The position numbers were made by a program, and so were the translations under genes. From Synechococcus sp. A15-24 (GTDB lineage: Bacteria > Cyanobacteriota > Cyanobacteriia > PCC-6307 > Cyanobiaceae), in assembly GCF_014280195.1 (NCBI RefSeq), contig NZ_CP047960.1:90001-122000 (forward strand): a DNA stretch of 32,000 bases. The letters run 5' to 3'. Below, piece after piece: positions 1-21,117 of the stretch. The first letter of the stretch is position 1; every line of letters starts with the position of its first letter. The notes beneath the pieces are model-generated. The model saw only the letters and a list, made by a program, of their open reading frames with translations. It had not been told where the DNA came from and did not search any database.

Positions 1-1493
1 TTATCGATGAGAGTATCCAATATATTCTTTATTGCGTTGAGAGTTTCCTGTTGATTATTACAGCGAATTCCTAATTTACCCTCTTCAACTAGCTTATGCC
101 ACGACTCTGATAAAAAAACTTTGCCATCCCTCCTTGTTGTCAGTTTTATGTATTCGATTACTTTCGGTATATTAATACTTACGCTGCTCCCAAGGTTCCC
201 TATGAAGCTTGACATTATTGTATTTAAATATATTGATGGTTTTTCTGAAAAAGTAGATGCAATATGACTCGATCCTCCTGATCCACCTATGCAAAATTCT
301 GCAACTCTAGATAGTGATGTTTGAATTTTATCGTAGATAAGGTCATTACTTCCAAACTTACTTATATCTTCATCAATGAAATTGTTTGCTGTATTCATGT
401 ATCTTTTTCCAAATCTTACTAAATAACAATTTTTACTTTTCAAGTATTCAAGCATCAGACTCAGATTATCTTCATTTCCATTTCTTAGGCTATTAATATT
501 ATTGTGCATATCTTCCTTATATCCACTGTCTCGATATGAGATTGCCACAATTATCATGTCTTTTTCGATTGCCTTTAGCGTATTTGGAATATACTCTTTA
601 AGAATATTATTTGCTTCATTATCAAGCGAGTAGTTAATTGATTTATTCCCAAACTCGATCGGTTTGGAGAGATCTATCTTTTTTTTAAAGAGTAATGTTG
701 AGTTTTTATTTCTCAGCTCTTTTTGATATTGCAAGTAATAAGAATGTATGTTAAAGGGTATATATTCTGCCAAATCTTTAGCGAATGTCCAATCGTCATC
801 TTTGTCTAAAGTTTTATATTGTAGATTATAGGCATCATACATTTTTTGAAGCATATATGGGAACGGTTTGAACTTACTGAATCCATATAATACAGGTTTA
901 GCATATTCTTTGCTCTTTGGCATTTCACTCCGCAAATGAAGAATCTCCAAAAACTGTGTCATATTTGCAGGATTTAATATCATGTCTGGAGCATATATTC
1001 CTTTTGAAATAGCCCTTGTGATTTTTTCTTCGTAGTCTAGTAAATGTCTGTATCTCTTTTCATGATGTTGTGGCCATGTAAAATCACTCTTTTTAATCCA
1101 TGTGGTGTGTAGGAAGTATTTTATCTGTAAACTGTCATTTTTGCGAAAGAATATCGATTCCGTTTTTTCCTTCACTTGATCCAATTCCCAGTGCAATAGG
1201 CAAGCTGACACCGATGGGTATTCTTCAGTTAATTTTTCAATTGCATCTTTTGATATTTGGGCTCGATTAAGTGAGTAGTGTTTTTCGAATCCATGAACTA
1301 GCATCTTTATTAATTTTACGATCCACTCATGTTGTCGTTTTAGTTTGTCATCTTTTTCACTGAATTGATGTTTTCCCCAATAATATATTGAATCTTCAAC
1401 CAAGTCTCTCTTTATATCATTACACAGTGTGCACACTAACTCAAAATGAAAATACTGTGTATTTCTTTTATGTGCAGACAACATGTAGCTCAT
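1..1493 (-). CDS. hypothetical protein, possible glycosyltransferase (partial; 3' end lies beyond the left window edge)
   Basis: I hand-translated the minus-strand frame. It starts at ATG 1493-1491 (MSYMLSAHKRNTQYFHFELVC...) and has no in-frame stop down to position 3, so it is open-ended and absent from the supplied track. It is K/E/N-rich. The C-terminal segment ...AEFCIGGSGGSSHIASTFSEKPSIYLN... resembles the C-terminal part of O-antigen-cluster glycosyltransferases (TIGR04372-like; recalled from memory, unverified). Confidence 0.6.
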   Translation of the reverse strand, partial: MSYMLSAHKRNTQYFHFELVCTLCNDIKRDLVEDSIYYWGKHQFSEKDDKLKRQHEWIVKLIKMLVHGFEKHYSLNRAQISKDAIEKLTEEYPSVSACLLHWELDQVKEKTESIFFRKNDSLQIKYFLHTTWIKKSDFTWPQHHEKRYRHLLDYEEKITRAISKGIYAPDMILNPANMTQFLEILHLRSEMPKSKEYAKPVLYGFSKFKPFPYMLQKMYDAYNLQYKTLDKDDDWTFAKDLAEYIPFNIHSYYLQYQKELRNKNSTLLFKKKIDLSKPIEFGNKSINYSLDNEANNILKEYIPNTLKAIEKDMIIVAISYRDSGYKEDMHNNINSLRNGNEDNLSLMLEYLKSKNCYLVRFGKRYMNTANNFIDEDISKFGSNDLIYDKIQTSLSRVAEFCIGGSGGSSHIASTFSEKPSIYLNTIMSSFIGNLGSSVSINIPKVIEYIKLTTRRDGKVFLSESWHKLVEEGKLGIRCNNQQETLNAIKNILDTLID

Positions 1494-1544
1494 GGCTTTC
1501 TTCTTCTATGATAGAATTATATTAACATAAATCTCATCTGCGTT

Positions 1545-2282
1545 ATGCTTGGTGACTGCAGCTCCTATCAAAATAAAGGTTTTTTGGTTGAATTGAATGC
1601 GCTCTCTAGCCATGAGTTAGATATTATACAACGATTTATTGTACTTAATATTCAATCATTATTTAAAGAGTGTGCTGTACCGTATGAATCTCCACTTGAA
1701 TGGCCAAGTCTTATCAATCCCTCTAACCGAAAGTATTGGTTCCACAACCACATTTCTTCTAAGAGTGTACGACGATTCACGGCTGAGCAGGTTTCCAAAA
1801 TTCTTAAATTTACCATTTTTTCTAGACTTCGTGAGCTTCTCGGTGAATTTGTTGTCTCAGATGAGGAGTTAATTGGTTATCCCGATGTCTATTGGAGATT
1901 TGTACGACCTTACGAAGAAGGTGATATTGGCCCACTTCACTGCGATTCGTGGTTTTGGGATTTAAATCCTTCATGGAATCATAACTCAGACTTTAAAAAG
2001 CGTACAAAAGTATGGATAGCTATCCTTGCTGAAGTAAACCAAAATGGTTTAGTAGTTTTCCCTGGTTCTCATAATGGTCACACATTTTCATATAAAGTTA
2101 TTTCTTCTGAAAATAAGCTAAAGCCGACAATAGTTAGTCCGCCTTCAATGTCTTCTTCGTTTTTGGTTCCCACTAATTCTACTGATGCCATCATATTCCA
2201 TGATAAATTATTACATGGTGGTTCCCTAAATAAAGGCTCTTCCCCGCGTCTCAGCTTTGAATTTACTTGTCTTCATAATTAA
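1545..2282 (+). CDS. Fe(II)/2-oxoglutarate dioxygenase, PhyH (phytanoyl-CoA dioxygenase)-like
   Basis: 245-aa ORF with an ATG start. It has an HxD motif (GPLHCDSWFW), FPGSHNG, and a distal His (LLHGGSLN), as in PhyH-family facial triads. It is the first gene of the plus-strand operon, 51 nt from the divergent gene. Confidence 0.6.
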   Translation: MLGDCSSYQNKGFLVELNALSSHELDIIQRFIVLNIQSLFKECAVPYESPLEWPSLINPSNRKYWFHNHISSKSVRRFTAEQVSKILKFTIFSRLRELLGEFVVSDEELIGYPDVYWRFVRPYEEGDIGPLHCDSWFWDLNPSWNHNSDFKKRTKVWIAILAEVNQNGLVVFPGSHNGHTFSYKVISSENKLKPTIVSPPSMSSSFLVPTNSTDAIIFHDKLLHGGSLNKGSSPRLSFEFTCLHN

Positions 2283-2284
2283 TT

Positions 2285-3010
2285 ATGATCTTTATTAAAC
2301 CTCTTGCCTCATCTAAAATTCTAAATGTCTTAGATACCGCACTCTGCGATGTTATTTCTGACCACTTGTCTTTAGACTTTTACCCTCATGACCTTAGTGT
2401 TCTTCATCAATATGTCGATAAGTATGAATTAAATGCTTTACGCCTTAAGTGTTTTGAGGCGACTAATAATATCAATTGGGATAGTTTGCTGCGTGATGCA
2501 TGTTTCAGTGTTTTATCTTCTGCATTAGGTCCAGACCTTCTTATTCAGAAAAAGCTGAACTTATCGATCCATATGCCTGGGGATGATCTATCCACCTTGG
2601 CAGCCCATACAGACTGTTCTAGTGGCGATAGCCCCTTCGAGCTTGTCCTTTGGCTGCCTCTGACGAATGCCTTCGATACAAACAGTATGTTTATATGTAA
2701 CAGAGTAGAATCGTCTCGCTTTTATGAAGCCGTTTTGAATGGGCTTAGGCACAATGTCGACCTCTCTAATTCGACGTATATATCTATCAATAGAGGTTAT
2801 TTTCTTGTTTTTCCACCTACTTTGATTCACGGTAATTCTATTAACAGTACAGATTCAACTCGTATTTCAGTTAATATTAGAGTCAAATCTGTTTATTCGC
2901 CTTATTCAAAATCCTTGGTCGGTGACAGGATGTTTGGTTCTTATTATAAAGAGTGGAATATTACTGAACATCACTCTTGGAATTATCATGTCTATAATAT
3001 ATTCAAATGA
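2285..3010 (+). CDS. Fe(II)/2OG oxygenase of the 'sporadic carbohydrate cluster' type; paralog of 20260..21078
   Basis: Motifs AAHTDCSSGDSPFELVLWLPLTN...TNSM and FPPTLIHGNSIN...RISVNIRVK align with LPIHADTWNGVSPFELNIWIPLVN..TNSM and FDQSLPHGYSLN...HWSINCRFK in the 20260..21078 ORF. This gives an HxD...H triad plus an Arg. Confidence 0.6.
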   Translation: MIFIKPLASSKILNVLDTALCDVISDHLSLDFYPHDLSVLHQYVDKYELNALRLKCFEATNNINWDSLLRDACFSVLSSALGPDLLIQKKLNLSIHMPGDDLSTLAAHTDCSSGDSPFELVLWLPLTNAFDTNSMFICNRVESSRFYEAVLNGLRHNVDLSNSTYISINRGYFLVFPPTLIHGNSINSTDSTRISVNIRVKSVYSPYSKSLVGDRMFGSYYKEWNITEHHSWNYHVYNIFK

Positions 3011-3414
3011 CTTTTACTTATACACATTCTCGTCCCTTTGGACGCTACTGTATACCTATCTCTATTCAAAGCCTCTATTTACGTAATTATTGTGTATCCT
3101 GCTCTTTGCCATTTACACTACCACAAACCGAAAATCCTGTGTTTGGATCATATTCAGTTCTATTAAACACCATTTCATCCGCTAACTTGTCTAATAGATC
3201 CTCTATTAACCTAGTTTCTTCTTCTATTTACATTTTTGACCAACTAATAGATAATGCTACTACTATACCGGAGCTTAATTTATATGATATTGTTTACCAT
3301 TGCCCTCTTGAGCGCTTTGTCGGCACTCTAGATCAACTAATCGAACTGTTGCACTCCTGTCGAGCGTACGATCGCTTGGCTCTTGATTCACCTTTAAATG
3401 ATGACCAATTGTAA
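3007..3414 (+). CDS. small uncharacterized carbohydrate-cluster protein (LIC12192/TIGR04323-like from memory); paralog of 19802..20248
   Basis: ATGA start/stop overlap with the upstream gene. The N-terminus YTHSRPFGRYCIPISIQSLYLRNYCVSCSLPFTLPQTE aligns with GYIASGEFNGHRVPQHIQNQIVKTYCDANNLKFVLSRAEY. It holds the same position immediately after the oxygenase in both clusters. It has zero Lys in 135 aa. Confidence 0.5.
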   Translation: MTFTYTHSRPFGRYCIPISIQSLYLRNYCVSCSLPFTLPQTENPVFGSYSVLLNTISSANLSNRSSINLVSSSIYIFDQLIDNATTIPELNLYDIVYHCPLERFVGTLDQLIELLHSCRAYDRLALDSPLNDDQL

Positions 3415-4519
3415 CTTTTGTGGAGCTCCAGTATTCTTGGAGCTCTCTAATCCTTCTTATTATACTACTGCTTTTTCTAAGCAATCATCTTCATCATTTA
3501 TAAGTCAATCTGTTCAATGCAATGGTTGTGGCGTTAATATACTTGCTAATGATAGCCCTTATTCCTTGCTTGGCAATTTATGCCGTGATTTAAAATATAA
3601 TGAACCAACTTCTCATTATTTTCAGCTAATAACTGATCTTAATGTATCCCTTACTCCTGAAAATCGAATTACAATATATAGATGTTCGCCTAAAGATGAT
3701 TATCTAGCACAATCTCTGTTCAACCATCATCCTTCCAAGTATGTTATCTTTCCCGAATATTTAAATTTGCATGAGTTAAACAATATTGCCGTAGATGCTA
3801 ATTCTCTTTTTCTATGTATTCGCTATATTGAGCACGTTAATTCTTATGACTACCTCCAGAAACTATTTACTGCTATACATGATTCCGATTCCTTTATATA
3901 TTTCGAAATTCTTGACTTTCAATCGCTTATTAATGCAGGTGACTACTCTTTCATTTGGAATGAACGTGTTTCTTACCCTACTCAACCCCAAATTAAAAGC
4001 CTCTTGTCGACGAATGGTTTCGCCTGTTCTACTTTTCAATTTTCATCCTCACAAGCTGTAGAACCCTTCCTTTCTTTCTTTGCTCGCCCTCTAGATACGA
4101 GATCGTGGGAAATCAATAGTGCTCTTCCACCATCACCAATTGCTTCTACATTTTCTCTCTCTAATTGTGAAAGCATTATTATTCAAAGACTCAAGTACTC
4201 ACTTTCTCAAGTTCAAAGCATTAGTTTTTACGGTGTTGGAAATAAGTCAATGCAATTATCTCTTTATATAAATCAGTATTTACCTTCTATACGTCTTGAA
4301 TTTTTCGATGGTACTGCTTTGAAAGTTGGTTCGAAATGGCTTACTAGCACTGTTAAGCACTTTGATAGTGATTTTTGTCAATCTGATCTTTATATTTTTT
4401 CTTTTGATAATAGTTATTCGAAGCAGCTTCAAAGCACTATTCTTTTTGAGCATCCGTCTGCTAGTATTAAGTTCATAAGTAAATTCTTTTCAATACCAGA
4501 ATATGAAAAAAATTGCTGA
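3398..4519 (+). CDS. Zn-ribbon / C-methyltransferase-like protein with a degenerate SAM-binding motif
   Basis: It has an N-terminal CxxC...CxxC (CNFCGAP...CNGCG) like 5005..6246. The central and C-terminal segments parallel that paralog (LFLCIRYIEHV.. vs NVFAHNDNL..; ISFYGVGNKS vs FVGYGAARS). No clear DxGxxxG SAM loop is present. Confidence 0.45.
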   Translation: MMTNCNFCGAPVFLELSNPSYYTTAFSKQSSSSFISQSVQCNGCGVNILANDSPYSLLGNLCRDLKYNEPTSHYFQLITDLNVSLTPENRITIYRCSPKDDYLAQSLFNHHPSKYVIFPEYLNLHELNNIAVDANSLFLCIRYIEHVNSYDYLQKLFTAIHDSDSFIYFEILDFQSLINAGDYSFIWNERVSYPTQPQIKSLLSTNGFACSTFQFSSSQAVEPFLSFFARPLDTRSWEINSALPPSPIASTFSLSNCESIIIQRLKYSLSQVQSISFYGVGNKSMQLSLYINQYLPSIRLEFFDGTALKVGSKWLTSTVKHFDSDFCQSDLYIFSFDNSYSKQLQSTILFEHPSASIKFISKFFSIPEYEKNC

Positions 4520-5030
4520 GGGTGTTTTCCATGTCACAGGACCTATTTTGTGTTTAACGGACGAAATGATTGATGCCCTGCTTGTCGAATGCTCCTCAGC
4601 CTCTAAAAAGCGCGCGAGGATAAATTTCCACCCTTCTAATAAATCTAATGTACAAGAAATGATTGTTGCACTTCATAAGTCTACTCAGATTGATCCACAT
4701 AGGCATCTCAACAAATCCGAAAGTTTTCACGTTATTCAAGGGGATGTATCCGTCGCAATCTTAAAAGAGGAGACCTTCGAGCCTGTTCAGCTAATTCATT
4801 TATCCGCTGGATCTTCACATTGTTATTATCGACTAAATGAACCTCTTTACCATTTAGTTGTTCCTATGACTGAATTTGTTGTTATGCATGAAACCACAGA
4901 GGGGCCTTTTATTCCTTCTAGTCATGATGATATTCATGGATTTGACTCCGACGCTCGTTTGCCTGTAGAATCAATAAAGATTCTTATTTGCCAAGATTAC
5001 AACAATGATTGCAAAGCGCACTCAATGTAG
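4503..5030 (+). CDS. WbuC-like cupin-fold protein
   Basis: The pattern SASKKRARINFHPSNKSNVQEMIVALHKSTQIDPHRH...FHVIQGDVSV matches what I recall for WbuC-family cupins of O-antigen clusters. It overlaps the upstream gene by 17 nt. Confidence 0.5.
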   Translation: MKKIAEGVFHVTGPILCLTDEMIDALLVECSSASKKRARINFHPSNKSNVQEMIVALHKSTQIDPHRHLNKSESFHVIQGDVSVAILKEETFEPVQLIHLSAGSSHCYYRLNEPLYHLVVPMTEFVVMHETTEGPFIPSSHDDIHGFDSDARLPVESIKILICQDYNNDCKAHSM

Positions 5031-6246
5031 ACTCTGTAATTCATCTGATCTTGTTGCCGAGGTTATTTTTCCACATACTCTCATTGCTGATAAATATTCA
5101 CCTGAAGCAAAAGCATCATCTCATCGTTATCCCCTTGATTTGTATAGATGTTCATCTTGTGGTCACATTCAAGTCCTAGATATTGTTGATTTGAGTGTCC
5201 TCTTTGATTCTGACTATACATATAAACCAAGTCGTAATCAAGGCCTAATACAGCACTTCAATAAGTACTCTGCATACGCCCTTGACCTTTTAGGCTATAA
5301 AACGTCTCAATGTCTTGATATAGGCTCAAATGATGGTTTATTTTTGTCCTGCATTAAGGAGCAATCAGCTGCAACTGTTCTCGGTATTGACCCAGCTTAT
5401 GCCGCAGTTTCATATGCACAGTCAAATGGTATACCGACTCTCCACGATTTTTTTAATGCTGAAAAATCTTTAGTTATTGGTGATAAGTATGGTCTATTTG
5501 ACATTGTCTCTGCTAATAATGTATTTGCGCATAATGATAATTTATCATCCTTCGCTCAAGGTGTTTCTAATCTCTTGCGAGAAAATGGCCTCTTCTGTTT
5601 CGAAGTCAGTTACCTTTATGACATTATTCATAAGACCCTCATTGGAACTCAATTCCATGAACATCTCTCCCATCACTCTCTTTCCTCTTTAATTCCTTTT
5701 CTCTTGCGGTTTAACCTTCACTTATTTGATGTACAGCGTGTCGATACTCAAGGTGGTGCAGTCATTTGTTACGCAAGAAAACTTTCATCAAGTTCACCTT
5801 CACCTTCTTTATCTCGTAACCTTACTGATCTGCTGCTTTTGGAAGATGAACTTGATATTACAGGTCCACGTGCAATGCAATTATTTCGTTCTAATATTAT
5901 TGCATACAAGAATAAATTTCATCAACTATTCAATGACGTTAAACAAAATAATTGCCGCTTTGTAGGTTATGGTGCCGCTCGTAGCCTCAATCTTTTCACT
6001 TCCTTCTTGCAAATAGAGAATCATCTTGATCTAATTTTTGAAGACAATCCTGAGAAGCAAGATAAATATCTTTTTGATACTGCTTGTAGAATTATGCCTT
6101 ATGATCCTTCGCTTATTACTGAATCTACTGTAATCATCCCCTTTGCCTGGGTGCATACTGATTCTATTGTCGAAAAGCTACGTTCTTCGTCTGTCAATTG
6201 TAAGGTTCTTACTTTATATCCATCGGTTCAACTCATTACACTCTGA
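5005..6246 (+). CDS. NDP-hexose C-methyltransferase family protein (Zn-ribbon + class I SAM MTase + C-terminal domain)
   Basis: CRLCNS...YPLDLYRCSSCGHIQ is a Zn-binding N-terminus. CLDIGSNDGLFL is a SAM loop. VGYGAARSLN is the C-terminal Rossmann-like domain. This architecture is typical of TylC3-type sugar C-methyltransferases. Confidence 0.65.
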   Translation: MIAKRTQCRLCNSSDLVAEVIFPHTLIADKYSPEAKASSHRYPLDLYRCSSCGHIQVLDIVDLSVLFDSDYTYKPSRNQGLIQHFNKYSAYALDLLGYKTSQCLDIGSNDGLFLSCIKEQSAATVLGIDPAYAAVSYAQSNGIPTLHDFFNAEKSLVIGDKYGLFDIVSANNVFAHNDNLSSFAQGVSNLLRENGLFCFEVSYLYDIIHKTLIGTQFHEHLSHHSLSSLIPFLLRFNLHLFDVQRVDTQGGAVICYARKLSSSSPSPSLSRNLTDLLLLEDELDITGPRAMQLFRSNIIAYKNKFHQLFNDVKQNNCRFVGYGAARSLNLFTSFLQIENHLDLIFEDNPEKQDKYLFDTACRIMPYDPSLITESTVIIPFAWVHTDSIVEKLRSSSVNCKVLTLYPSVQLITL

Positions 6247-6248
6247 CT

Positions 6249-7133
6249 ATGCACATCTTTATCACATCTGTTGGCTCTTACATCGGCTTATATCTTACCT
6301 CCCAGTTCTTGTCACAGGGACATTTGGTTACCGGAACATATCGTACTCTAAGTCCTACTCTCTCTGCTTTATCTCTTAATTCACGTCTTACACTTATACC
6401 ACTTGAGCATAGCTATGATTCTGCTTATCCAAACATAGAGGGTTCCTTCAACTTACTTATTAACTGTACAGGTGCTTATCCTGATGTGAATGTTTCTGCT
6501 GATGATGTCGTATATGCAAATATTAAATCTGCTTCTTTAATCCTATCTCTTTCAAAAACTTTAGTCGGAATTTCAATCATAAATCTTTCCTCTTTGTCTA
6601 TTTATGGAGATTTAAAAATTCCTCTAATTGACTCTCATACTAATCCTTCACCTTCAACTCCTTATGGATCTACAAAGCTTCTCTCTGAACAAATCCTCAA
6701 TCAATCTCATAATTTTTCCTCACTTGTTCATATCCGCCTTCCAGTTGTTTTAGGTGATGGCGCCCATCGCGCATGGCTGCCTTCTTTATTAAGTAAATTA
6801 TCTACTGGAGCTAGTGTTTCTGTCTATAACCCAGATTCTATTTATAATACATGTACAACTCTGCATGCTCTTAGCAAATTTATTTTAAAACTCTCTAGTC
6901 TTACAAGTCTTACTAATATACATCATGTCAATTTGTCTTCCATTGGTGACCTTTCTATTCGTGAGATAGTTCTATTATTAACCTCACGTCTGAATTCATC
7001 TTCTGATGTTTCTTTTTCTTCCTCTAGTACACCATGCTGTTATGTCAAACATGACGCCGCAGTTGAGCTTGGATTTATGCCTACATCTACTTCTCAAGCT
7101 ATTTCCTATTGGTTAGATGAATCACAACTTTAA
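6249..7133 (+). CDS. NAD-dependent epimerase/dehydratase (extended SDR), divergent
   Basis: It has a degenerate N-terminal Rossmann motif (IFITSVGSYIGLYL) and a YxxxK (PYGSTKLLSE). By hand count about 54 of 294 residues are Ser. Confidence 0.5.
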   Translation: MHIFITSVGSYIGLYLTSQFLSQGHLVTGTYRTLSPTLSALSLNSRLTLIPLEHSYDSAYPNIEGSFNLLINCTGAYPDVNVSADDVVYANIKSASLILSLSKTLVGISIINLSSLSIYGDLKIPLIDSHTNPSPSTPYGSTKLLSEQILNQSHNFSSLVHIRLPVVLGDGAHRAWLPSLLSKLSTGASVSVYNPDSIYNTCTTLHALSKFILKLSSLTSLTNIHHVNLSSIGDLSIREIVLLLTSRLNSSSDVSFSSSSTPCCYVKHDAAVELGFMPTSTSQAISYWLDESQL

Positions 7134-7533
7134 GTTTACACAAGAGTCTTTTCACCTCAAGCAAAAGTTTTCTTCTATTAATCAAGAAGTTGACTCTTTG
7201 TCTCGTAAATTTTTAGCACATAGAGCTTCTTCGATTTATTCTTCATCGACACTATTTCTTACTTCATGTATATGGTTTGATCAATGTCGCATTGGGTTAT
7301 TTTGTGTACACTCACTTCCCATAGGTGAATATCATGTTTTTGTCCTCCCACGTCTTGAATTTAGCTCCACTTACACATTTGAGACTCTTCTTTGGGCTAT
7401 CATCGACAATTTAACTGAAAACTATATTGTAGATTCTTCATGCAACATTATATTCCCCTTGGTCAATCCGTCCCAAGGTGATACTAATCTTTCTTTTTCT
7501 CTTAAGCTAAAGGACTTTATTCGTTATGTCTAG
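7117..7533 (+). CDS. hypothetical protein
   Basis: 138-aa ORF embedded in the operon, with a 17-nt overlap upstream and an 8-nt overlap downstream. I recognised no motif. Confidence 0.4.
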   Translation: MNHNFKFTQESFHLKQKFSSINQEVDSLSRKFLAHRASSIYSSSTLFLTSCIWFDQCRIGLFCVHSLPIGEYHVFVLPRLEFSSTYTFETLLWAIIDNLTENYIVDSSCNIIFPLVNPSQGDTNLSFSLKLKDFIRYV

Positions 7534-8152
7534 ATTTACTATTGTTGGTCCAACTTGGCGTACCTCTTATATCCAAGACAATTTTCCTTCACATCATACC
7601 CTTTTTTGTTCAACCGAAATTCCTGATATAAAGACCCTCGAGAACTCAGATTTTTTTATAACCTGTGGTTTCGATAGACGAATTAAGGAAGATGTGCTTT
7701 CTTTGTTTAATCCGTTGAATCGTCTTAATATTCATGCCACTTATTTGCCTTTCGGAAAGGGCATTGGCACTGCTTTATTTTCCCTACTCTATCCCACTCC
7801 ATTAGGTTCCTCAATTCATGTTCTTAGACCCAAGATCGATACTGGTGAAGTAATTTGCCAAGCTATTCTTAATCCACCTCCTAGCATTACTACTCAGCGT
7901 GAGTTATATCATTGCTGGGTAATACATGCATCACGCCTCTTTTTAGATAATATTGACGCGATTGCTGAACTACACCTTCCATTGCTTTCTCAATCTAACC
8001 AATTCAATACACCTTATATTTCACGTGATGAGTCTGAGCTGATCCTTTCACTTTTGCCCAAGCGCTGGGATTCTTCACTACGCGAAGTCAACAACTTATC
8101 GCATGTGCTAGCATTTAGATCTTCGTATTTTCTCCTTAATGATATCGACTGA
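7526..8152 (+). CDS. formyltransferase-family protein (sugar N-formyltransferase-like)
   Basis: DFFITCGFDRRIKEDVL...LNIHATYLPFGKG...GSSIHVLRPKIDTGEVICQ matches the Formyl_trans_N signature (N-x-H, LPxxRG-like, IDxGxII). It sits directly upstream of a DegT-type aminotransferase. Confidence 0.55.
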   Translation: MSRFTIVGPTWRTSYIQDNFPSHHTLFCSTEIPDIKTLENSDFFITCGFDRRIKEDVLSLFNPLNRLNIHATYLPFGKGIGTALFSLLYPTPLGSSIHVLRPKIDTGEVICQAILNPPPSITTQRELYHCWVIHASRLFLDNIDAIAELHLPLLSQSNQFNTPYISRDESELILSLLPKRWDSSLREVNNLSHVLAFRSSYFLLNDID

Positions 8153-9335
8153 TTTTAAATTAAAGTTGCCACCTAGGAATGCTTTAAGCAGGCATGAATT
8201 GTTATCCTTGTTCAATTGTTTCTTATATTATAGAAGAATAGGTCTTGATCCCGGATATGATGATTTCTTTGAAAATCAGTATACCTCGGCTTTTGCATCT
8301 TATATGGGTGGAGGTTATAGTGATGCAGTATCTTCAGGTTGTTCTTCTATCTATATTGCCCTTAAATCCTTATCTTTACCCTCTGGTTCACTAGTTGCTA
8401 CATCACCAGTAACCGACGCTAGCGTTATTGGGTGTCTTGTTTCGTTGGGCTTAGTCCCTTATCTTCTAGATTCAGATTATCAATCTTACAACACTGGTAT
8501 TCGACAATTAAAGGATCGATATATTCCAGCAATTAAGGCTCTTGTTTTAACCCACGCAGGTGGTGTTCCCTGCAAGGATACAGTGCAAATCTCAGAATTC
8601 TGTAAATCAAAAAATATTGTTCTGATTGAAGACTGTAGTCAAGCCATCGGAGCTATCCCTCAGGAATCTAACTTACGTGTAGGTAAATTCGGCCGCTTCG
8701 GTTGTTTTTCGACTATGTATAGAAAGAATCTTGCTGCTGGGGGTAGTAGCGGATTACTTTATTGTACTGACTATAAGGATTATCAGATAGCTAAGCAACA
8801 TGCCGATCGAGGAAAGCGTTGGTGGGACAAAACTTCGGTTGATTTACGTGATCCTGGTTTTGCTGACTTCCCTGGTCTTAATTTTAATTCGGATGAAATT
8901 AGGTGTAGTATTGGTCTTGCCAATCTTTCCCGTCTTCCATCAACTATTTCTAAAAGGAAGAAATTTTTATCGGATTTGATTTTCTTCCTTGACAAATACT
9001 CTGTCAAGCTTTTTTTTCCTAGCGAATTTCATTCCGGAATATCTCCCTTTTACTTTCCAATCTTTATAGATACTAGCCTCACTTCCACCCCCGTTCTGTC
9101 TATTTCACATGCTTTGAAGGATGATGGATTAGGAATTGGAGTAAAATATGGTTGCCTTGTTTCAACTTGGAAATGGGCTTCACAGTACATGTATGATAAA
9201 TTTCATGCTCCTAATGCATTAGCTGCACGGGACCAATGCTTCCATCTGTACCTTAATGAAAACTACACGCGTAGACACGCTAGACTCATAGCTAAGCGTT
9301 TATCCTTGTGGGAGCAATGCTATATTAGAAAATAA
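8139..9335 (+). CDS. DegT/DnrJ/EryC1/StrS-family PLP-dependent sugar aminotransferase/dehydratase
   Basis: EDCSQAIGA and FSTMYRKNLAAGGSSG (putative PLP-Lys) fit the family signature. Confidence 0.65.
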   Translation: MISTDFKLKLPPRNALSRHELLSLFNCFLYYRRIGLDPGYDDFFENQYTSAFASYMGGGYSDAVSSGCSSIYIALKSLSLPSGSLVATSPVTDASVIGCLVSLGLVPYLLDSDYQSYNTGIRQLKDRYIPAIKALVLTHAGGVPCKDTVQISEFCKSKNIVLIEDCSQAIGAIPQESNLRVGKFGRFGCFSTMYRKNLAAGGSSGLLYCTDYKDYQIAKQHADRGKRWWDKTSVDLRDPGFADFPGLNFNSDEIRCSIGLANLSRLPSTISKRKKFLSDLIFFLDKYSVKLFFPSEFHSGISPFYFPIFIDTSLTSTPVLSISHALKDDGLGIGVKYGCLVSTWKWASQYMYDKFHAPNALAARDQCFHLYLNENYTRRHARLIAKRLSLWEQCYIRK

Positions 9336-9346
9336 TTTTCAATGCT

Positions 9347-10531
9347 TTGAAAGTCCTTATAATTGGTGGTGGTTTCGCTGGATGCTCTGCAGCTCATATT
9401 CTTTCAGACTTACCTAATGTAGAAATCGACCTTATTGAAAAGAATTCTTTTCTTGGGGCTGGCAATAAAACTCGTTGGTATGGCGGCCACCCGTATACCT
9501 TTGGCCCTCGACACTTCTTGACTCCATATCAAGACGTGTTTGATTACCTAAATAATATTTTACCAATTAATCTTTGTCCTGAACATGAATTTCTTTCTTA
9601 TGTTGAGCCAGATAATAACTTTTATGCTTATCCCATTAATATGCAGGATGTGCGTTCCATGCCTGACTCAAACCGTATTTTGAATGAGTTAAATACATGT
9701 CAGGAGCAAATAAAAGCACAAGGTGGCATTCAGGCTTCAAACCTCGAAGATTATTGGCTGCAATCAGTTGGTAAAACTCTTTACGATAAATTAATCCAGC
9801 CTTACAATTCAAAAATGTGGCTTGTAGATGATGTCTCTTCTATCGATACTTTTAAGTGGTCTCCTAAGGGAGTAGCTATTAAGGACGGGCCTCGTGCGGC
9901 TTGGGATGAGGTTTATTCAGGTTATCCACATTCCCCAAGAGGCTACGACGATTACTTCCCATTTGCAACCCAAAATGCAAATGTACTTTTATCTACGACT
10001 GTTGATTCTATTAATCTTAATTCTAAGCTCGTTACCATAGATGGAAACACTAAATCTTATGATTGTATTGTTAATACTATTGGCCTGGATACTCTTATGC
10101 CTGATACTGGTCTTCCCAAGTTGCCTTACCTTGGAAGGAAATTAGAGTTAATTGTCTTTCCATCTGAGCATGTCTTTCCAGAAAATGTATATTTCCTTTA
10201 TTATCCTGGTTCAGGATCATTTACTCGCCTAGTTGAGTATAAAAAATTCACCAAGCATAAAAGTCACACTAGCCTTATTGGTATGGAAATACCCGTTAAT
10301 AACGGCGGTCAAGACTACCCTATGCCTTTTAAATGGGCACAGAGACTAGCTTCTGAATATCATAATTGTTTTGCATCTTCTACTTTTTCGATGGGCCGAG
10401 CTGGTTCCTATCTCTATGGTATTGATATAGATGATTGCATTAAGCAATCTTTTATTTTAAGGGAAATGATTGTCAGTGGCTCCTGGGATCATCCTGTTCC
10501 CGGCGAGCAATATCGTTTCCCCGAGCTTTAG
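9347..10531 (+). CDS. UDP-galactopyranose mutase-like FAD-binding protein
   Basis: TTG start. N-terminal dinucleotide fold VLIIGGGFAGCSAAHIL..IEK..LGAGN, followed by GPRHF, resembles Glf-type flavoenzymes. Confidence 0.55.
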   Translation: MKVLIIGGGFAGCSAAHILSDLPNVEIDLIEKNSFLGAGNKTRWYGGHPYTFGPRHFLTPYQDVFDYLNNILPINLCPEHEFLSYVEPDNNFYAYPINMQDVRSMPDSNRILNELNTCQEQIKAQGGIQASNLEDYWLQSVGKTLYDKLIQPYNSKMWLVDDVSSIDTFKWSPKGVAIKDGPRAAWDEVYSGYPHSPRGYDDYFPFATQNANVLLSTTVDSINLNSKLVTIDGNTKSYDCIVNTIGLDTLMPDTGLPKLPYLGRKLELIVFPSEHVFPENVYFLYYPGSGSFTRLVEYKKFTKHKSHTSLIGMEIPVNNGGQDYPMPFKWAQRLASEYHNCFASSTFSMGRAGSYLYGIDIDDCIKQSFILREMIVSGSWDHPVPGEQYRFPEL

Positions 10532-10552
10532 CTCTCCTTTCTATTATTTTTC

Positions 10553-10561
10553 TGCTATAAT
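10553..10561 (+). promoter_or_regulatory. possible internal extended -10 promoter element (TGcTATAAT)
   Basis: tgctataat lies in the only sizeable gap (51 nt) of the plus-strand operon, about 22 nt upstream of the ATG at 10583. There is no convincing -35. Confidence 0.25.
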
Positions 10562-10582
10562 ATATTAAAATACTTCCTTCTT

Positions 10583-11938
10583 ATGCCTTCCGTTTTAAAG
10601 AAGTTCCCCAACGATCCGCTTCCCGTAAGCATTGTTGGCGGAAAAGGTATTTATCTATTTCTTCAAGATGGAACCGAGCTTCTTGATTTCACCGGTGGTT
10701 GGACGGCTCACTCGGTCTTTGGTATGGGAGATCAGGGGCTTAAAGATGCTATTAATAGGCAGTTGGATATTTATGCTCACTTGGATGGCAACGTATGGAC
10801 TAATCCACTTTTAGACGAGCTCGCACAACTTACAGTTTCACAAGCCCCGGAAGGACTTAACAAAGTATTTTTCGGCGGCTGTAATGGCTCTGATGCTATG
10901 GAGCAAGCCATGAAGCTCAGTTATCATGTTCACCATGATTCTGGCAACCCAACGAAGCAAAAATATATCTATAGAGCTCAGTCTTTCTCTGGGGCTACAC
11001 TCCAAACGATGAGTGTGTCTGATTTGCCTATCCTTAACTTTTACAACCCTATCAAGCCTGGCGGTTATATTCAGATTCCTGAGCACAATTATTTGCGACT
11101 TGCTCACCCCAACGAAACTCAGCAAGAATACCTTGATCGTTGTGCAAACGACCTAGAGACTGCAATTATCCAAAATGGACCTGAAAATATTGCGGCTTTT
11201 TGCGGTGAAACTATGATGGGTGCTTTGAGGGGTGAAGTTGTACCTCTTCCAGGTTACTGGAAGCGTATGCGCGAAATTTGTGATAACTATAATATTCATA
11301 TCATTCTAGATGAAATTTATTGTGGCATGTCAAGGCCAGGAGAAGTCTATTGCTGTACATATGACGACTTTACTCCTGACTTCATCGCAATTGGTAAGGG
11401 TTGTGCCGGTGGTTATGCACCTATTTCTGCTGTTGTTACCAAGGGAATTTTTGAGGACGTTATTGCCAATGGTACTGGGCGTATTCAGTTAGGTCATACT
11501 TTTGCAGGTTATGCGCTGGGAGCGGCGGCCATGCTTGAGACCCAGAAGCGTGTTCAAACCCCTGAAATGCTATTGCATGTCCGCAAGATGGGGCAGAAAA
11601 TTCGATCCATTATTGATTCTGAGCTGTCTGACCATCCCTTTTATGTCGAAACACGTGGTCGTGGTTTAAATTCAGCTTTTGAGTATCATTGCGACAACGT
11701 TCACGGTTTTAGTCTTTCTCTTGCCCAATCAATGAAGTCTAAACATAAAATACTAATTAATGCAAAATGGCATAGAACAACTTTTACCCCAGCATTTATC
11801 ATTGACGATTCAATTGTTGAGCGTGTTTTGTCGGCTTATGTAAATGAGTTTAAGTCTATTTCACGTAGTTGGTCAGGTGTTATCGACTCGAGTGTGAATG
11901 TTTCTCGAGCTCTTGGTGGTGTAAAGCCTGGTGCTTAA
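10583..11938 (+). CDS. class III (acetylornithine/GSA-type) PLP-dependent aminotransferase
   Basis: LDEIYCGMSRPGEVY (DEI..G..R.G) and FIAIGKGCAGGYAPISAV (PLP-Lys) are class III hallmarks. The ORF is 451 aa. Confidence 0.7.
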   Translation: MPSVLKKFPNDPLPVSIVGGKGIYLFLQDGTELLDFTGGWTAHSVFGMGDQGLKDAINRQLDIYAHLDGNVWTNPLLDELAQLTVSQAPEGLNKVFFGGCNGSDAMEQAMKLSYHVHHDSGNPTKQKYIYRAQSFSGATLQTMSVSDLPILNFYNPIKPGGYIQIPEHNYLRLAHPNETQQEYLDRCANDLETAIIQNGPENIAAFCGETMMGALRGEVVPLPGYWKRMREICDNYNIHIILDEIYCGMSRPGEVYCCTYDDFTPDFIAIGKGCAGGYAPISAVVTKGIFEDVIANGTGRIQLGHTFAGYALGAAAMLETQKRVQTPEMLLHVRKMGQKIRSIIDSELSDHPFYVETRGRGLNSAFEYHCDNVHGFSLSLAQSMKSKHKILINAKWHRTTFTPAFIIDDSIVERVLSAYVNEFKSISRSWSGVIDSSVNVSRALGGVKPGA

Positions 11939-12824
11939 TGTGACAATTTCCTTTGCCGTTATAGGTTGCCATGGTTATATTGGCTCCCTTCTACTCAAAC
12001 ATCTTAGAAAGGCTTATCCAGAATCGACGCTTCTCGGCGTTGATATCTCTTCCTTCCCGGATAAAGAAATAAATTCCACATTGGTCCATTATTTTTCTAC
12101 AGATTCGCTTTCCTCCATTCAGTGGGATTTACTTTCCTCTAGGGTTCATATTATTTATTGCGCTGTTACTTCCTCTCATCTTCTTGATCCGCATCAATTA
12201 AATTCCGGTTTATTGCCTGATATTTCTTCTCTTGCATTGTTATTAGAGTGTCTTCCTCACTCTATTGATTTTAGTTTTACTTATCTCTCCTCTTCGGCTG
12301 TCTATGGGTCTAAGACTGGTATCCTTCGCGAATCCGATGAGTTGGTGCCTCTAAATCCTTATTCATTGATGAAAATCCAATCCGAATCCATAGTCCAATA
12401 TATGTCTAGAGTCCGTAATATTCCTTCTTTGATTTTTCGTCTATTCCAGTCCTATTCACCTCATCAAAACCCTGTTAACCTTATTGGTAAGCTTATGTAT
12501 ACTTTAAGCCACGCTTCTTCTCCTGTGACTTTGTTTAAGCAGGGGTCACAGATACGATCCTTTCTCTATGTTGATGACTTGATTGAGTGTCTCTCTGTAT
12601 TGCCAAATCATACTTCTGCTAAGATTTACAATATCGGTTCACCAGAGGCAGTATCCATATATAATTTTGCATCCGCAATAGGAGCTAATTTTGTTTTAGC
12701 AGGTGATCCTGATTCTTCTGATATTGTTTTGCCTGATATTAGTTCCTTTTCTAGTGATTTTGATTGGTTACCTAGTGTGTCTCTTACAACCGGCTCTGCA
12801 ATGGTTCGCAACTTTTTTAGTTAA
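11931..12824 (+). CDS. NAD-dependent epimerase/dehydratase (extended SDR)
   Basis: GTG start; an in-frame GTG at 11940 is also possible. Motifs VIGCHGYIGSLL (Rossmann), SSSAVYG and YSLMKIQSE (YxxxK). It is the last gene of the plus operon. Confidence 0.55.
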   Translation: MLNVTISFAVIGCHGYIGSLLLKHLRKAYPESTLLGVDISSFPDKEINSTLVHYFSTDSLSSIQWDLLSSRVHIIYCAVTSSHLLDPHQLNSGLLPDISSLALLLECLPHSIDFSFTYLSSSAVYGSKTGILRESDELVPLNPYSLMKIQSESIVQYMSRVRNIPSLIFRLFQSYSPHQNPVNLIGKLMYTLSHASSPVTLFKQGSQIRSFLYVDDLIECLSVLPNHTSAKIYNIGSPEAVSIYNFASAIGANFVLAGDPDSSDIVLPDISSFSSDFDWLPSVSLTTGSAMVRNFFS

Positions 12825-13779
12825 GATAACTTCTTAGTTTTATCGCTATATCTTTCGTTCTCTTGTTGTATTCCTCTAAATATTTTGTTGACTTTACGTG
12901 TTTTGCCATAATTAATATCCATCTTACTTGATACACATTAAGCAATTTGTGTATTACCTTGCTACTTACTTTTGTCCCTATTGTTCTTCTCTTTCTTATT
13001 TCATCAACAATCTTTCTTAATTTGTTTTCGTCTAGCAAATGATTTGGTTGTAGCATCATATCACATATGGTTTTGTGTATATCATCTAAGCCTCCATACT
13101 CAAAATCGAAGAACATGAATTCGTTATTCATGCGTAACGAATTTTGTATACCAACGTCTGATGGAGATAGTATTAATCTGTCTCTGTTTGTTTGATCGCA
13201 ATTATCTTGCCCCAACGTCTCTATCTTTTTTTTGGTTTCACTTTGTACCCATAATCTGATTTCCTCGCTTATTTCTGAATCAAATAATATATCGTTATAC
13301 CTTTTCTGATTTTCATTTATTGTATTTTTGATACTTACATAACTGTCTTTTGCTTTATGCTTATACTTATTTGCTGTTGCTGGCTTCTCCTCGTTTAATT
13401 TCTCCAGAAAATCAACAAAGCTATTTATGTACTCATCATCAATTCGCTTGACTCTCTCACCATTTAGCCAGCTCATTATTATCCATTTTCCTTCTTTATC
13501 ACTTACTAACAGTCTTGGTGTATTCTTTATATTGTACTCTTCGCAGTATCTAAGAAAAGTTTCTTCCCTTTTGTTCCTCATGCTTTGCTCATAACTACCA
13601 TTTTTTCCTGGATATATCTTTACTATATATTTATTCTTGTCATTTGTCTTCGCTATGTATGTATCACTGTTTTTACCTCCACTTAGACGATCTAGTTCTT
13701 TTATATTTATTAACTTGTTTGCTATGATTTCATTTAGAAGAGCTTCTTTCACTTCAAAAGTTCCTTTAATTCTTTCCAT
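12817..13779 (-). CDS. APH/choline-kinase-family phosphotransferase (putative sugar kinase)
   Basis: LSGGKNSDTYIA near the N-terminus, plus SPSDVGIQNSL....FFDFEYGGLDD (Brenner/DFE-type motifs of the aminoglycoside phosphotransferase fold). K/E/N-rich. Confidence 0.55.
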   Translation of the reverse strand: MERIKGTFEVKEALLNEIIANKLINIKELDRLSGGKNSDTYIAKTNDKNKYIVKIYPGKNGSYEQSMRNKREETFLRYCEEYNIKNTPRLLVSDKEGKWIIMSWLNGERVKRIDDEYINSFVDFLEKLNEEKPATANKYKHKAKDSYVSIKNTINENQKRYNDILFDSEISEEIRLWVQSETKKKIETLGQDNCDQTNRDRLILSPSDVGIQNSLRMNNEFMFFDFEYGGLDDIHKTICDMMLQPNHLLDENKLRKIVDEIRKRRTIGTKVSSKVIHKLLNVYQVRWILIMAKHVKSTKYLEEYNKRTKDIAIKLRSYLN

Positions 13780-14354
13780 GAATGCATTATCATGATATCA
13801 TCAAAACGTGAAAGTCCACTTTCTTCCTTGGGTTCGTAAAGTATTTTTTTTACATCTTTGTTTATCATAGTTAAAATTTCCACTAAATCGTCAATGTAGT
13901 AATTGCATCCAAGGTTGTGTATTCGTGCTGCTTTTTTTTCTTTTGTATCCTCAAAATACACGTCTTTAATACTCATTCCTATCCCATCCTTGTCAAAAAA
14001 TCTATTCTTTTCCAGCCATTTCATTGCGCTTGTCCTTAGATTTAATCTTGGCCCTTTGTAGGGGTACTCTGTTTTATGACTTATGATTACGAGTTTTCTT
14101 GAATCTTTTTTGAGATGAATTAGTGCATCAATCATGTCTTTGGATGGTTCTGCGTCTCTTATTTTATTGCCATATACTTCCGCTTGCAGTATCGTGAATT
14201 CGTAGTCCTTTTCTTGACTTCTTAGGTAATCGCGTATCGTTGTTTTACAGCATTTCATAGACTGAGTTATTAATCCCTTTTCCACTGCTAATTGATGAAA
14301 GAGTTTATCGTACCTTACCAATGTGTTGTCGAAGTCCAACCCAATCAGTTCCAT
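13749..14354 (-). CDS. HAD-superfamily hydrolase/phosphatase
   Basis: N-terminal DxDxT motif (IGLDFDNTLV), a later ISHKT segment and a YYIDD segment. Confidence 0.55.
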   Translation of the reverse strand: MELIGLDFDNTLVRYDKLFHQLAVEKGLITQSMKCCKTTIRDYLRSQEKDYEFTILQAEVYGNKIRDAEPSKDMIDALIHLKKDSRKLVIISHKTEYPYKGPRLNLRTSAMKWLEKNRFFDKDGIGMSIKDVYFEDTKEKKAARIHNLGCNYYIDDLVEILTMINKDVKKILYEPKEESGLSRFDDIMIMHSWKELKELLK

Positions 14355-15268
14355 TTTTGTTCGGCATTTAGCTTTATTCCTTTCCAGTTTAGGCCTTCTG
14401 CTTCTCTTGCGTACTCTTGATTCCCGAGTTGATGTATAAAGTGATCATCAATTCCAACTTGTTTTAATTTCACCTTATCTATTTCTTTATGCGATAGCCA
14501 TTCGATTAGGGATGAGCCTAAACCGCCAATTTTATTGTGTTCTTCTAATGTGATCCACTTTGTGTAACCCTCGCTAATGCATCTTTTCAGAAATTCAACA
14601 TCCAGCGGCTTGATACTCCCCATGCTGGCTACACCCATGATCACCCCTTCATGTTTAAGTTTTTCTCTTGCGATTAATGCTTCATTGACAATTGGACCAA
14701 TCCCAAGAAGTAAAAATTCTTTTCCTGGTTTTAGAAGATGTGCTTTTCCAATCCCCAATTTCATTGTGTTGTCAAGTAAATTTGGTTCACCTTTTTTGCC
14801 TATTCTTATGTAAGTTGGTTTTCTTTCATAAATTGCTTGACGTAATTGTGCTGTTAATTCCAGTGAGTCTGTTGGTGCACATATGCGAATGTTTGGAATG
14901 CTTCGTAGAATTGCTATGTCTTCCAGTGAATGGTGAGTCACTCCTAGTTCTGCATATGAAAGCCCTGAACCCGTTCCCACGATCACCACAGGCGCCTCGT
15001 GATAAGCAACACCAGTGCGAATTTGTTCAAGGCAACGAGTTGTCGTGAATGGGGTGATTGTGTATACCACTGGGCGTAGTCCGCTTAACCCCATACCTGC
15101 TGCCATGCTCATCATATTTGCTTCGGCGATACCGCAATTTATGAATCTCTTTGGCGCTACTTCTTTATAGCGATCAAACATTCTGTTGCCGATATCCCCG
15201 GAGAGAAGGCACACATCGTCCATTTCCTGGGCGAGTTCGGTCATTGCTTTCGCAAATGCATTTCTCAT
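14345..15268 (-). CDS. transketolase, C-terminal (pyrimidine-binding) subunit
   Basis: RFINCGIAEANMMSMAAGMGLSGLRPVVYTITPF and GTGSGLSYAELGVTHHSLEDIA are typical. ATGA overlap with the N-terminal subunit gene. Confidence 0.8.
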   Translation of the reverse strand: MRNAFAKAMTELAQEMDDVCLLSGDIGNRMFDRYKEVAPKRFINCGIAEANMMSMAAGMGLSGLRPVVYTITPFTTTRCLEQIRTGVAYHEAPVVIVGTGSGLSYAELGVTHHSLEDIAILRSIPNIRICAPTDSLELTAQLRQAIYERKPTYIRIGKKGEPNLLDNTMKLGIGKAHLLKPGKEFLLLGIGPIVNEALIAREKLKHEGVIMGVASMGSIKPLDVEFLKRCISEGYTKWITLEEHNKIGGLGSSLIEWLSHKEIDKVKLKQVGIDDHFIHQLGNQEYAREAEGLNWKGIKLNAEQKWN

Positions 15269-16110: not shown

Positions 16111-16111
16111 C

Positions 16112-20248: not shown

Positions 20249-20259
20249 GTCAGTGAGAA

Positions 20260-21078: not shown

Positions 21079-21117
21079 GGATATCGACCATGGTTATCAT
21101 AGGTGATTGAGAGGGCT

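Follow-up and report, generated by a model that had tools for sequence, protein, structure and literature searches.

The 32,000-nt stretch of the Synechococcus sp. A15-24 genome considered here (hereafter the window, within which genes are designated by w and their start coordinate; comparison loci and contigs carry the prefix L) contains on its plus strand, at 1545-12824, an operon of 13 consecutive, unbroken and tightly packed open reading frames (ORFs; g1 to g13) whose sense strand is pyrimidine-rich. Composition at four-fold degenerate sites, expressed as the fraction of pyrimidines (Y4), of purines (R4) or of G plus C (GC4) at these sites, demonstrates that this richness is not a property of the operon genes or of their products. 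Rather, the operon is written on the pyrimidine-rich strand of a 15-16 kb low-GC segment composed of one purine-rich and one pyrimidine-rich strand, an asymmetry seen at all codon positions and strongest at four-fold sites. It probably reflects a substitution bias acting at the level of the DNA strand, as opposed to selection on gene products or the simple legacy of a donor genome, and its recurrence with the same polarity in most related Synechococcus loci, where it appears to follow the strand and not the gene family, suggests that the bias is maintained in situ. The anomaly is real, is more general than an earlier, sequence-only reading of this DNA had recognized, and is not an adaptation of the 13 genes.

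Strand Asymmetry within the Window

As the sequence-only reading had claimed, the sense strand of the operon is rich in pyrimidines. Base counts across 1545-12824 (T 4066, A 2934, C 2366, G 1914) correspond to 57.0% pyrimidine and 37.9% GC, and the hand count reported for 6301-6600 (A 76, T 115, C 68, G 41) is exact. Gene by gene, sense-strand purine fractions range from 0.382 to 0.485, third-position purine fractions from 0.31 to 0.39, and Y4 values from 0.65 to 0.75. When compared with a background set of 141 low-GC ORFs from 65 other, unrelated genomes carrying the marker oxygenase, in which the purine fraction is 0.531 +/- 0.027 and Y4 is 0.521 +/- 0.054, the 13 genes have z scores of -1.7 to -5.6 in purine fraction, and of +2.4 to +4.2 in Y4.

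The minus-strand genes flanking the operon, which had been described as ordinary, proved to be outliers in the opposite direction. The first, at 1-1493, encodes a glycosyltransferase with a TIGR04372 domain; it lies upstream of and divergent from the operon, and purines predominate at the silent sites of its sense strand (Y4 0.30). Three further low-GC genes, at 12817-15268, encode kinase-like and HAD-like proteins and a transketolase C-terminal subunit, constitute the distal end of a core operon (15265-24994, minus strand) described below, and display purine fractions of 0.59-0.655 and Y4 values of 0.28-0.37. Across all of these flanking genes the purine fraction is 0.58-0.655, sense Y4 is 0.28-0.37 (z down to -4.5 against the same background) and Lys makes up 12-13% of residues. 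Pooled four-fold sites on the sense strand number T 869, A 379, C 310 and G 124 in the 13 plus genes (Y4 0.70) and A 202, T 83, G 73 and C 46 in the flanking minus genes; read on the plus strand, the pyrimidine fraction at these sites is 0.70 in the operon and 0.63-0.72 (pooled 0.68) in the flanking genes. Because the plus strand is equally pyrimidine-rich in both gene orientations, the bias belongs to the DNA strand and not to the genes, and the same counts bear out the earlier remark of a T-rich plus strand extending for about 15 kb irrespective of gene orientation. The compositional domain so defined, 1-16000, includes genes of both orientations, has a plus strand that is ~70% pyrimidine at four-fold sites, and has its left limit outside the window. 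The skew occupies only ~1-16 kb of the window, decaying across 15.3-17.1 kb, where plus-strand four-fold pyrimidine is ~0.57-0.58.

The type of skew is likewise evident at plus-strand four-fold sites. T/(T+C) is 0.74 and A/(A+G) is 0.75, a symmetric balance of transitions, and only the purine:pyrimidine ratio, at 30:70, is asymmetric, T being the commonest base and G the rarest. The skew is purely one of purine versus pyrimidine, and so of the transversion type. It does not follow the classical description of a G+T-rich leading strand, in which G>C and T>A occur on the same strand: here T>A is accompanied by C>G.

Protein composition is also affected. Ser accounts for 11.8% of residues in the operon compared with 6.1% elsewhere in the window, and Phe, Tyr and Cys likewise occur at raised frequency. 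Thus, of the earlier description of these proteins as Ser/Leu-rich and Lys-poor, the first element holds, as do two specific counts: 54 Ser among the 294 residues (18.4%) of the short-chain dehydrogenase/reductase (SDR) encoded at 6249-7133 (g7), and the complete lack of Lys in the product of 3007-3414 (g3), the paralog of which at 19802-20248 contains 10 Lys in 148 residues (6.8%). Leu is not enriched (11.5% in both the operon and the rest of the window), and Lys, at 4.3%, is low chiefly in comparison to equally AT-rich neighbours (10.6%). The log-ratio of amino acid frequencies between operon and flanks falls as codon positions 1-2 become richer in purines (Spearman -0.68, p = 9e-4), deviation from normal is greatest at codon position 3, followed by position 1 and then position 2, and the best-conserved enzymes, g10-g12, show the smallest shift in total purine together with the full shift at four-fold sites. 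These three observations fit a mutation pressure filtered by selection. The operon proteins drift passively toward Ser, Phe, Cys, Pro and Tyr, which have pyrimidine-rich codons, and away from Lys and Glu, and their neighbours in the opposite orientation drift the reverse way. Membrane-protein composition was considered as the source of the low purine content and rejected, as the effect peaks at four-fold sites and is present in soluble enzymes. A search for strand-specific k-mers, homopolymers and dinucleotides revealed nothing enriched that explains the skew (TT odds ratio 1.00).

Recurrence of the Asymmetry at Related Loci

In a collection of 5.8 billion proteins, g2 has no relative, besides itself, closer than ~51% identity, and syntenic relatives of the operon were found on four contigs, designated L003, L069, L070 and L001. 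On L003, homologues of g1-g6 lie opposite the core operon; those of g1-g5 have purine fractions of 0.41-0.46, with Y4 values of 0.65-0.71 for the g2-g5 homologues, 0.48 for the g1 homologue and 0.32-0.40 for the adjacent minus genes. L069, the closest syntenic relative, follows the gene order of the window from the glycosyltransferase through g10 and displays the same bias; it is a long-read contig full of errors, and was used for composition and not for substitution analysis. On L070, which is without a core anchor, homologues of g1-g7 have purine fractions of 0.40-0.47, and on its other strand the homologues of g11 (69% identity) and g10 (61% identity) have a purine fraction of 0.54. On L001, the core genes of which are 93% identical, homologues of g1, g2, g3, g7 and g11 are found on the core-operon strand with purine fractions of 0.54-0.59; genes on the other strand have purine fractions of 0.41-0.50 and Y4 values of 0.60-0.74, and polarity stays the same over 17 kb despite six switches in gene orientation. 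Taking these contigs and others together, homologues of g1, g2, g3, g7, g10 and g11 are pyrimidine-rich when opposite the core operon (window, L003, L125) and purine-rich when on the core-operon strand (L001, L129/L130). For g11 itself, Y4 is 0.72 versus 0.36-0.53 in homologues of 64-69% identity on the other strand. Judged from these sequence comparisons, composition appears to follow the strand and not the gene family. The nearest relatives share 27-72% protein identity, and synonymous sites are therefore saturated.

L003 is a 12.4-kb sequence (NZVD01000043.1) labelled 'MAG: Rhodopirellula sp. NAT69', that is, as part of a metagenome-assembled genome (MAG). Its core-operon proteins are 78-89% identical to those of the window, which, together with the same island architecture, identifies it as a Synechococcus-type island; it almost certainly derives from a picocyanobacterium and entered the planctomycete MAG through a binning error.

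A broader view is provided by a metagenome scan anchored on the core SDR, which yielded 79 loci. Polarity at these is expressed relative to the core operon, which sets it in the window. Among genes of GC 0.36-0.42 at Synechococcus-type loci, those on the same strand as the core operon (n = 68) have a purine fraction of 0.549 and a Y4 of 0.45, and those on the opposite strand (n = 24) a purine fraction of 0.445 and a Y4 of 0.634; opposite-strand genes of GC 0.42-0.48 (n = 8) have values of 0.446 and 0.626, respectively. As GC4 drops, pooled R4 climbs from 0.45-0.47 to 0.56-0.62 in same-strand genes, whereas in opposite-strand genes it declines from 0.43-0.46 to 0.31-0.39. No asymmetry is seen in high-GC genes at related loci, and at Prochlorococcus-type loci pooled R4 is 0.46 in both orientations. 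Once near-identical loci are collapsed, the polarity is found in 10 of 12 clusters, with Y4 differences of +0.08 to +0.32, and in 13 of 15 independent loci when the window, L001 and L003 are added. The cassettes at these other loci are mostly unrelated to that of the window in gene content, and Pfam matches in six of ten of their opposite-strand ORFs (PfkB, GSCFA, GT10, formyltransferase, DegT and HMGL-like) indicate that such ORFs are real genes.

Probable In Situ Origin and Alternative Explanations

The history of the asymmetry can be approached through w16112, w15265, w14345 and w13749, the syntenic orthologues of which share 52-86% identity between the window and other marine loci. In marine loci (window, L073, L076, L083) R4 in these genes is 0.57-0.82 at GC4 values of 0.14-0.56; in most high-GC freshwater loci it is 0.40-0.46 at GC4 0.8-0.9, and in the Prochlorococcus-type locus L126 it is 0.43-0.51 at GC4 0.15-0.20. 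These values indicate that the asymmetry is not a by-product of AT-richness and that it arose in genes native to the locus, and the identity ranking of the orthologues is consistent with descent within the picocyanobacteria. Furthermore, inversion alone cannot make a purine-rich sense strand pyrimidine-rich, and the same families occur in both compositions, in each case in keeping with the local strand, which speaks for a bias upheld at the locus and against simple inheritance from a donor.

These data bear directly on the possibility, raised by the sequence-only reading, that the bias was acquired from a donor. In its most specific form this explanation holds that the segment was taken from an organism whose replication strands differ strongly in purine content, for instance a Firmicute, Fusobacterium or Tenericute of the PolC type, that the operon lay on the lagging strand there, and that its composition has not been ameliorated. 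The segment is indeed a low-GC block in surroundings of 50-59% GC, the bias is missing from the other low-GC blocks of the window, and the third-position order T>A>C>G is that of lagging-strand genes in purine-asymmetry Firmicutes (PMC4070872), although the magnitude seen here is beyond that of such genomes, in which lagging-strand genes keep total A at least equal to T. The expectation that related DNA would share the bias held for the diverged relatives in the same orientation on L003, L069 and L070, and the presence of bias in L003 and L070 relatives at 27-52% identity implies that it is old; it failed for homologues of the same families on the other strand (L001, L130), which have the opposite composition, and for the syntenic native flank genes, which acquired the mirror bias within the picocyanobacteria. 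Polarity relative to the core operon is, moreover, conserved over cassettes with unrelated genes. No donor candidate was identified among 66 genome loci with the marker gene, all unbiased bar the mis-binned Synechococcus contig L003, and no close relative was found outside Synechococcus-type islands. A phage origin was ruled out, as a tblastn search with g2 against 50,697 phage records gave no match and the relatives of g2 in IMG/VR, on three contigs, are only 33-39% identical. Donor legacy is therefore unlikely, though it retains some weight.

Transcription offers a second route to a strand-level bias, and one that we regard as distinctly improbable: one-directional transcription over the segment, by read-through from either the core operon or the 13-gene operon, would act together with transcription-coupled repair. 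The absence of any flip with orientation, either across the 11.3-kb block of 13 genes or at the six switches of L001, is difficult to reconcile with such a process, as is the presence of the same skew in the upstream divergent gene at 1-1493. Known signatures of transcription are of the transition type (C->T on the non-template strand), yet transitions are balanced here, and a T-rich, damaged non-template strand would fit only if plus transcription dominated everywhere, minus genes included. What speaks for the proposal is that the convergent operons overlap by 8 nt with no convincing terminator between them, that the asymmetry decays gradually over ~3 kb past the 3' end of the operon, and that the purine-rich strand is the sense strand for the majority of genes at the locus.

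Adaptive minimization of nitrogen cost in operon mRNA and proteins by an oligotrophic host, also suggested earlier, is very hard to sustain. While the operon is the cheapest set in the window, at 0.317 N per side chain and 3.51 N per mRNA nucleotide versus 0.389 and 3.82 in the rest, the adjacent low-GC minus genes are the dearest (0.402 and 3.96); since the flanks pay the reverse cost, the saving made by the operon is a by-product. Additionally, the bias peaks at four-fold synonymous sites and is uniform across genes, homologues on the other strand of sister islands are Lys-rich and purine-rich, and no comparable effect is seen at Prochlorococcus-type loci, whose waters are just as poor in nutrients. 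The remaining suggestion of the sequence-only reading, C->T deamination confined to one strand (non-transcribed or single-stranded), accords with T>A on the plus strand but is scarcely credible, as G>C on the sense strand, a transition skew and a flip with orientation would be expected, none of which is seen: C exceeds G 2.5-fold on the same strand (310 versus 124), G and not C is the depleted base, and transitions are symmetric.

The favoured explanation, a substitution bias of the DNA strand, would have strand-biased transversions as its source. Candidate routes include the loss of purines to T, via 8-oxoguanine or via depurination with the A-rule, and an asymmetry in polymerase mispairing such as that proposed for PolC purine asymmetry, with replication or another locus-level process possibly supplying the strand asymmetry itself.

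Several points weigh against this explanation. Firstly, it singles out no one physical cause, and confidence in any particular one is low. The combination of T>A with C>G is unlike the classical leading/lagging pattern, and GC skew in marine Synechococcus is weak, the GC skew index of CC9605 being 0.065 (PMC2684130). Secondly, high-GC core genes 2-5 kb away are without asymmetry and little is seen in two other low-GC blocks of the window, 19.8-21.8 kb and 26.8-30 kb (R4 0.41-0.55), such that a replichore-wide process would require masking or non-equilibrium in these regions. Thirdly, the polarity rule is statistical and not absolute. Two exceptional clusters go the other way, each resting on single genes, and same-strand cassettes at the freshwater loci L089, L094, L098, L099, L102 and L105 have purine fractions of 0.43-0.49 and Y4 values of 0.55-0.67; these six may represent inverted cassettes, membrane proteins or a different regime. 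Finally, many of the anchored loci come from few samples, by which p-values are inflated, and ORFs at the comparison loci were called mechanically.

Gene Content and Context of the Locus

Searches with Pfam and NCBIfam profiles returned enzyme-family matches for 11 of the 13 ORFs, all on the plus strand, and the earlier assignment of sugar-nucleotide tailoring functions stands. The first gene, g1 (1545-2282; purine fraction 0.453, Y4 0.67), encodes a PhyH-type dioxygenase; g2 (2285-3010) encodes a sporadic-carbohydrate-cluster 2OG-Fe(II) oxygenase (TIGR04324, 199 bits, cut-off 150); and g3 (3007-3414; purine fraction 0.387) encodes a LIC12192-like protein that scores 41.9 bits with TIGR04323, under the cut-off of 55. 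These are followed by g4 (3398-4519), encoding a 373-aa protein with syntenic homologues in L003, L069 and L070, g5 (4503-5030), encoding a WbuC-family cupin (TIGR04366, 112 bits), and g6 (5005-6246), the product of which is of the sugar C-methyltransferase type, with Methyltransf_13, Methyltransf_14 and S-adenosylmethionine methyltransferase domains. The Ser-rich product of g7 (6249-7133; purine fraction 0.382) is an extended SDR, that of g8 (7117-7533) is a 138-aa protein, and that of g9 (7526-8152) is formyltransferase-like by weak matches (Pfam E = 4e-4; NF005755, 32 bits). Neither g4 nor g8 has a family or PDB match, PDB sequence searches with both having given nothing usable. The remaining genes encode a DegT/DnrJ/EryC1 sugar aminotransferase, by family match (g10, 8139-9335), a GLF-like flavoprotein with the UDP-galactopyranose mutase fold (g11, 9347-10531), a class III aminotransferase (g12, 10583-11938) and a second extended SDR with 17.2% Ser and a purine fraction of 0.384 (g13, 11931-12824). 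The last two form a conserved two-gene module (10583-12824) that recurs in glycan clusters differing in their other genes (L153/L154; contigs of P0046 and P0047), where a formyltransferase sometimes precedes the class III aminotransferase and SDR.

The assignment of this DNA to its host is supported by 100% identity between g2 and a Synechococcus sp. A15-24 protein. With start codons placed as far upstream as possible, eight of the 12 gene junctions overlap, and not nine as had been stated, although one ATGA and three 17-nt overlaps were correctly noted. The claim that catalytic motifs are intact holds for the HxD...H triad of g2, whose residues H108, D110 and H182 are invariant across 19 homologues, and for YxxxK, kept in both extended SDRs. 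The canonical GxxGxxG motif is missing from g7; the N-terminal TSxxSxxG found in its place is common to g7 homologues of normal composition and, being family-wide, is not a sign of decay. A decayed pseudogene cluster was ruled out by the 13 unbroken ORFs, the invariant g2 triad and the YxxxK motifs. Antisense-shadow ORFs, a possibility raised by the scarcity of stop codons on a pyrimidine-rich strand, were ruled out by the 11 family matches and by the presence on the opposite strand of only two ORFs of at least 80 aa across the operon. Family content and motif conservation together argue that the 13 ORFs constitute a functional sugar-nucleotide tailoring operon within a low-GC hypervariable cell-surface glycan island. 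Consistent with the latter, GC is 31-43% across 1-15 kb versus 50-59% in host-like parts, and cassette content varies among loci whose core genes are 78-93% identical.

The core operon is the uncharacterized 'sporadic carbohydrate cluster' of NCBIfam (TIGR04323/TIGR04324), for which no paper under that name was found in literature searches. The earlier statement that the locus maps to no named pathway must therefore be qualified: the locus belongs to a named cluster, albeit one that is itself uncharacterized. The minus genes from 24994 down to 12817, including those encoding the HAD-like and kinase-like proteins and the transketolase C-terminal subunit, form one long operon. Its core comprises genes for a split transketolase N-subunit, an SDR, a 4,6-dehydratase, an HldE-like kinase/nucleotidyltransferase, a TIGR04323/TIGR04324 pair, a methyltransferase, a GmhA-like isomerase, a sugar-1-phosphate nucleotidyltransferase (NDP-sugar pyrophosphorylase), an FAD oxidase and a GmhB-like phosphatase, and the GmhA-, HldE- and GmhB-like set suggests that its product is heptose-based. 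In the HldE-like bifunctional protein (18078-19604) a cytidylyltransferase-like domain is N-terminal and a PfkB kinase domain C-terminal, the reverse of the order in E. coli HldE. The window thus holds two TIGR04324/TIGR04323 pairs: a canonical pair in the core operon (w19802-20248, TIGR04323, 85.3 bits; w20260-21078, TIGR04324, 246.9 bits) and a diverged pair, g2/g3, in the 13-gene operon, in which both copies score lower and g3, though below the family cut-off, is still adjacent to g2 and syntenic. The lower profile scores of g2 and g3 are in step with their compositional drift, which shows that such drift erodes hidden Markov model (HMM) scores.

At its 3' end the 13-gene operon meets the 3' end of the core operon, where g13 overlaps the convergent minus gene by 8 nt at the stop codons (12817-12824). 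No terminator-like structure was found between the two operons, in a promoter/terminator scan that was at chance level and uninformative; given the overlap and the lack of such a structure, mutual antisense read-through is likely. Beyond this junction, GC and strand asymmetry shift gradually over ~3 kb (14345-17500; also in L083, L112 and L076), across the split transketolase genes and the SDR, with no sharp island edge, and the two transketolase halves differ in GC (0.42 vs 0.52). Further to the right, two tRNA-Gly(GCC) genes on the plus strand (25158-25229 and 26363-26434) lie within a 140-nt direct repeat (25091-25230 and 26296-26435; 89% identity, 1205 bp spacing) located past the start of the core operon and ahead of the next low-GC block. 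The repeat could be a scar of island integration or of duplication, and the plus-strand tRNA pair is a weak hint, not relied upon as evidence, that the plus strand is the leading strand. The low-GC block that follows (26813-29995) encodes a TPR protein, a GT4 glycosyltransferase and small ORFs, all on the minus strand, and, unlike the block at 1-15 kb, has almost no strand asymmetry at four-fold sites (R4 0.43-0.51).

Relation to Known Strand Asymmetries and Significance

According to Szybalski's transcription-direction rule, mRNA-synonymous strands are reportedly loaded with purines. The neighbouring minus genes obey this rule in exaggerated form, while the 13 operon genes violate it, their mRNA-synonymous strand being pyrimidine-loaded; so do 31 of the 34 low-GC ORFs lying on the opposite strand at related loci. 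Purine loading further implies that the polarity of skew follows the transcription of each gene, and this is not the case here or on L001, the plus strand of the window being pyrimidine-rich in both orientations. Replication-strand bias is said to shape codon and amino acid usage in Borrelia burgdorferi, Chlamydia and Buchnera. As in those organisms, protein composition at the present locus depends on the coding strand and synonymous sites are hit most; unlike theirs, which is of the keto/amino type (G+T-rich leading strand), genome-wide and largely attributed to deamination, the bias described here is of the purine/pyrimidine type, local, and symmetric in its transitions.

A purine asymmetry between replication strands has been described in subsets of the PolC-bearing Firmicutes, Fusobacteria and Tenericutes, where it is a genome-wide effect and lagging-strand genes display third-position frequencies in the order T3>=A3>C3>G3 while total A>=T is kept (Saha et al., 2014; PMC4070872). 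The present locus is similar in that one strand is purine-rich irrespective of gene orientation, as seen at third positions, though here locally, and in that the operon shows the same order of third-position bases. It differs in that ~16 kb of low-GC island DNA is involved as opposed to a whole replichore, in that the effect is more pronounced (T outnumbers A in total on the sense strand, and pyrimidine fractions at four-fold sites are 0.70 versus 0.32 in the two gene orientations), and in that the host is a cyanobacterium. To our knowledge, cyanobacteria lack PolC.

Low-GC, hypervariable cell-surface glycan islands of marine picocyanobacteria form a known class, together with O-antigen-type loci. 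The locus resembles these in that a low-GC cassette lies beside conserved sugar-nucleotide genes, in the deep divergence of alleles between strains, and in the manner in which composition and divergence grade into flanking core genes. Literature searches found no description of strand-level purine/pyrimidine asymmetry in islands of Synechococcus or other cyanobacteria, and the phenomenon is, in our best reading, a local variant of strand compositional asymmetry that is unreported for such islands.

A narrower proposal, which we advance only tentatively and consider doubtful at present, is that marine Synechococcus glycan islands are subject to a locus-restricted, strand-specific transversion regime in which purines are lost, mainly to T, on the strand antisense to the core operon. 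If this were true, a single process would lower GC, segregate purines and pyrimidines by strand and speed protein divergence, part of the 'foreign low-GC island DNA' of picocyanobacteria would have been made in place, and the orientation of a gene inside an island would dictate the composition of its protein.

The presence of the same enzyme families in both orientations at one locus provides a natural experiment on the reach of strand bias, with Ser at 18% and Lys at 0-3% on one strand, and Lys at 12-13% on the other, without destruction of the genes. It also provides a caution, in that unusual protein composition or nitrogen thrift should not be read as adaptation, and the degraded HMM scores, which in the case of g3 fall below the family cut-off, mean that such genes are easily left unannotated. 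Should the bias indeed arise in situ, the low GC of picocyanobacterial islands alone would be no evidence of foreign origin, and purine/pyrimidine strand asymmetry would exist outside the PolC lineages, where its mechanism would be open to study.

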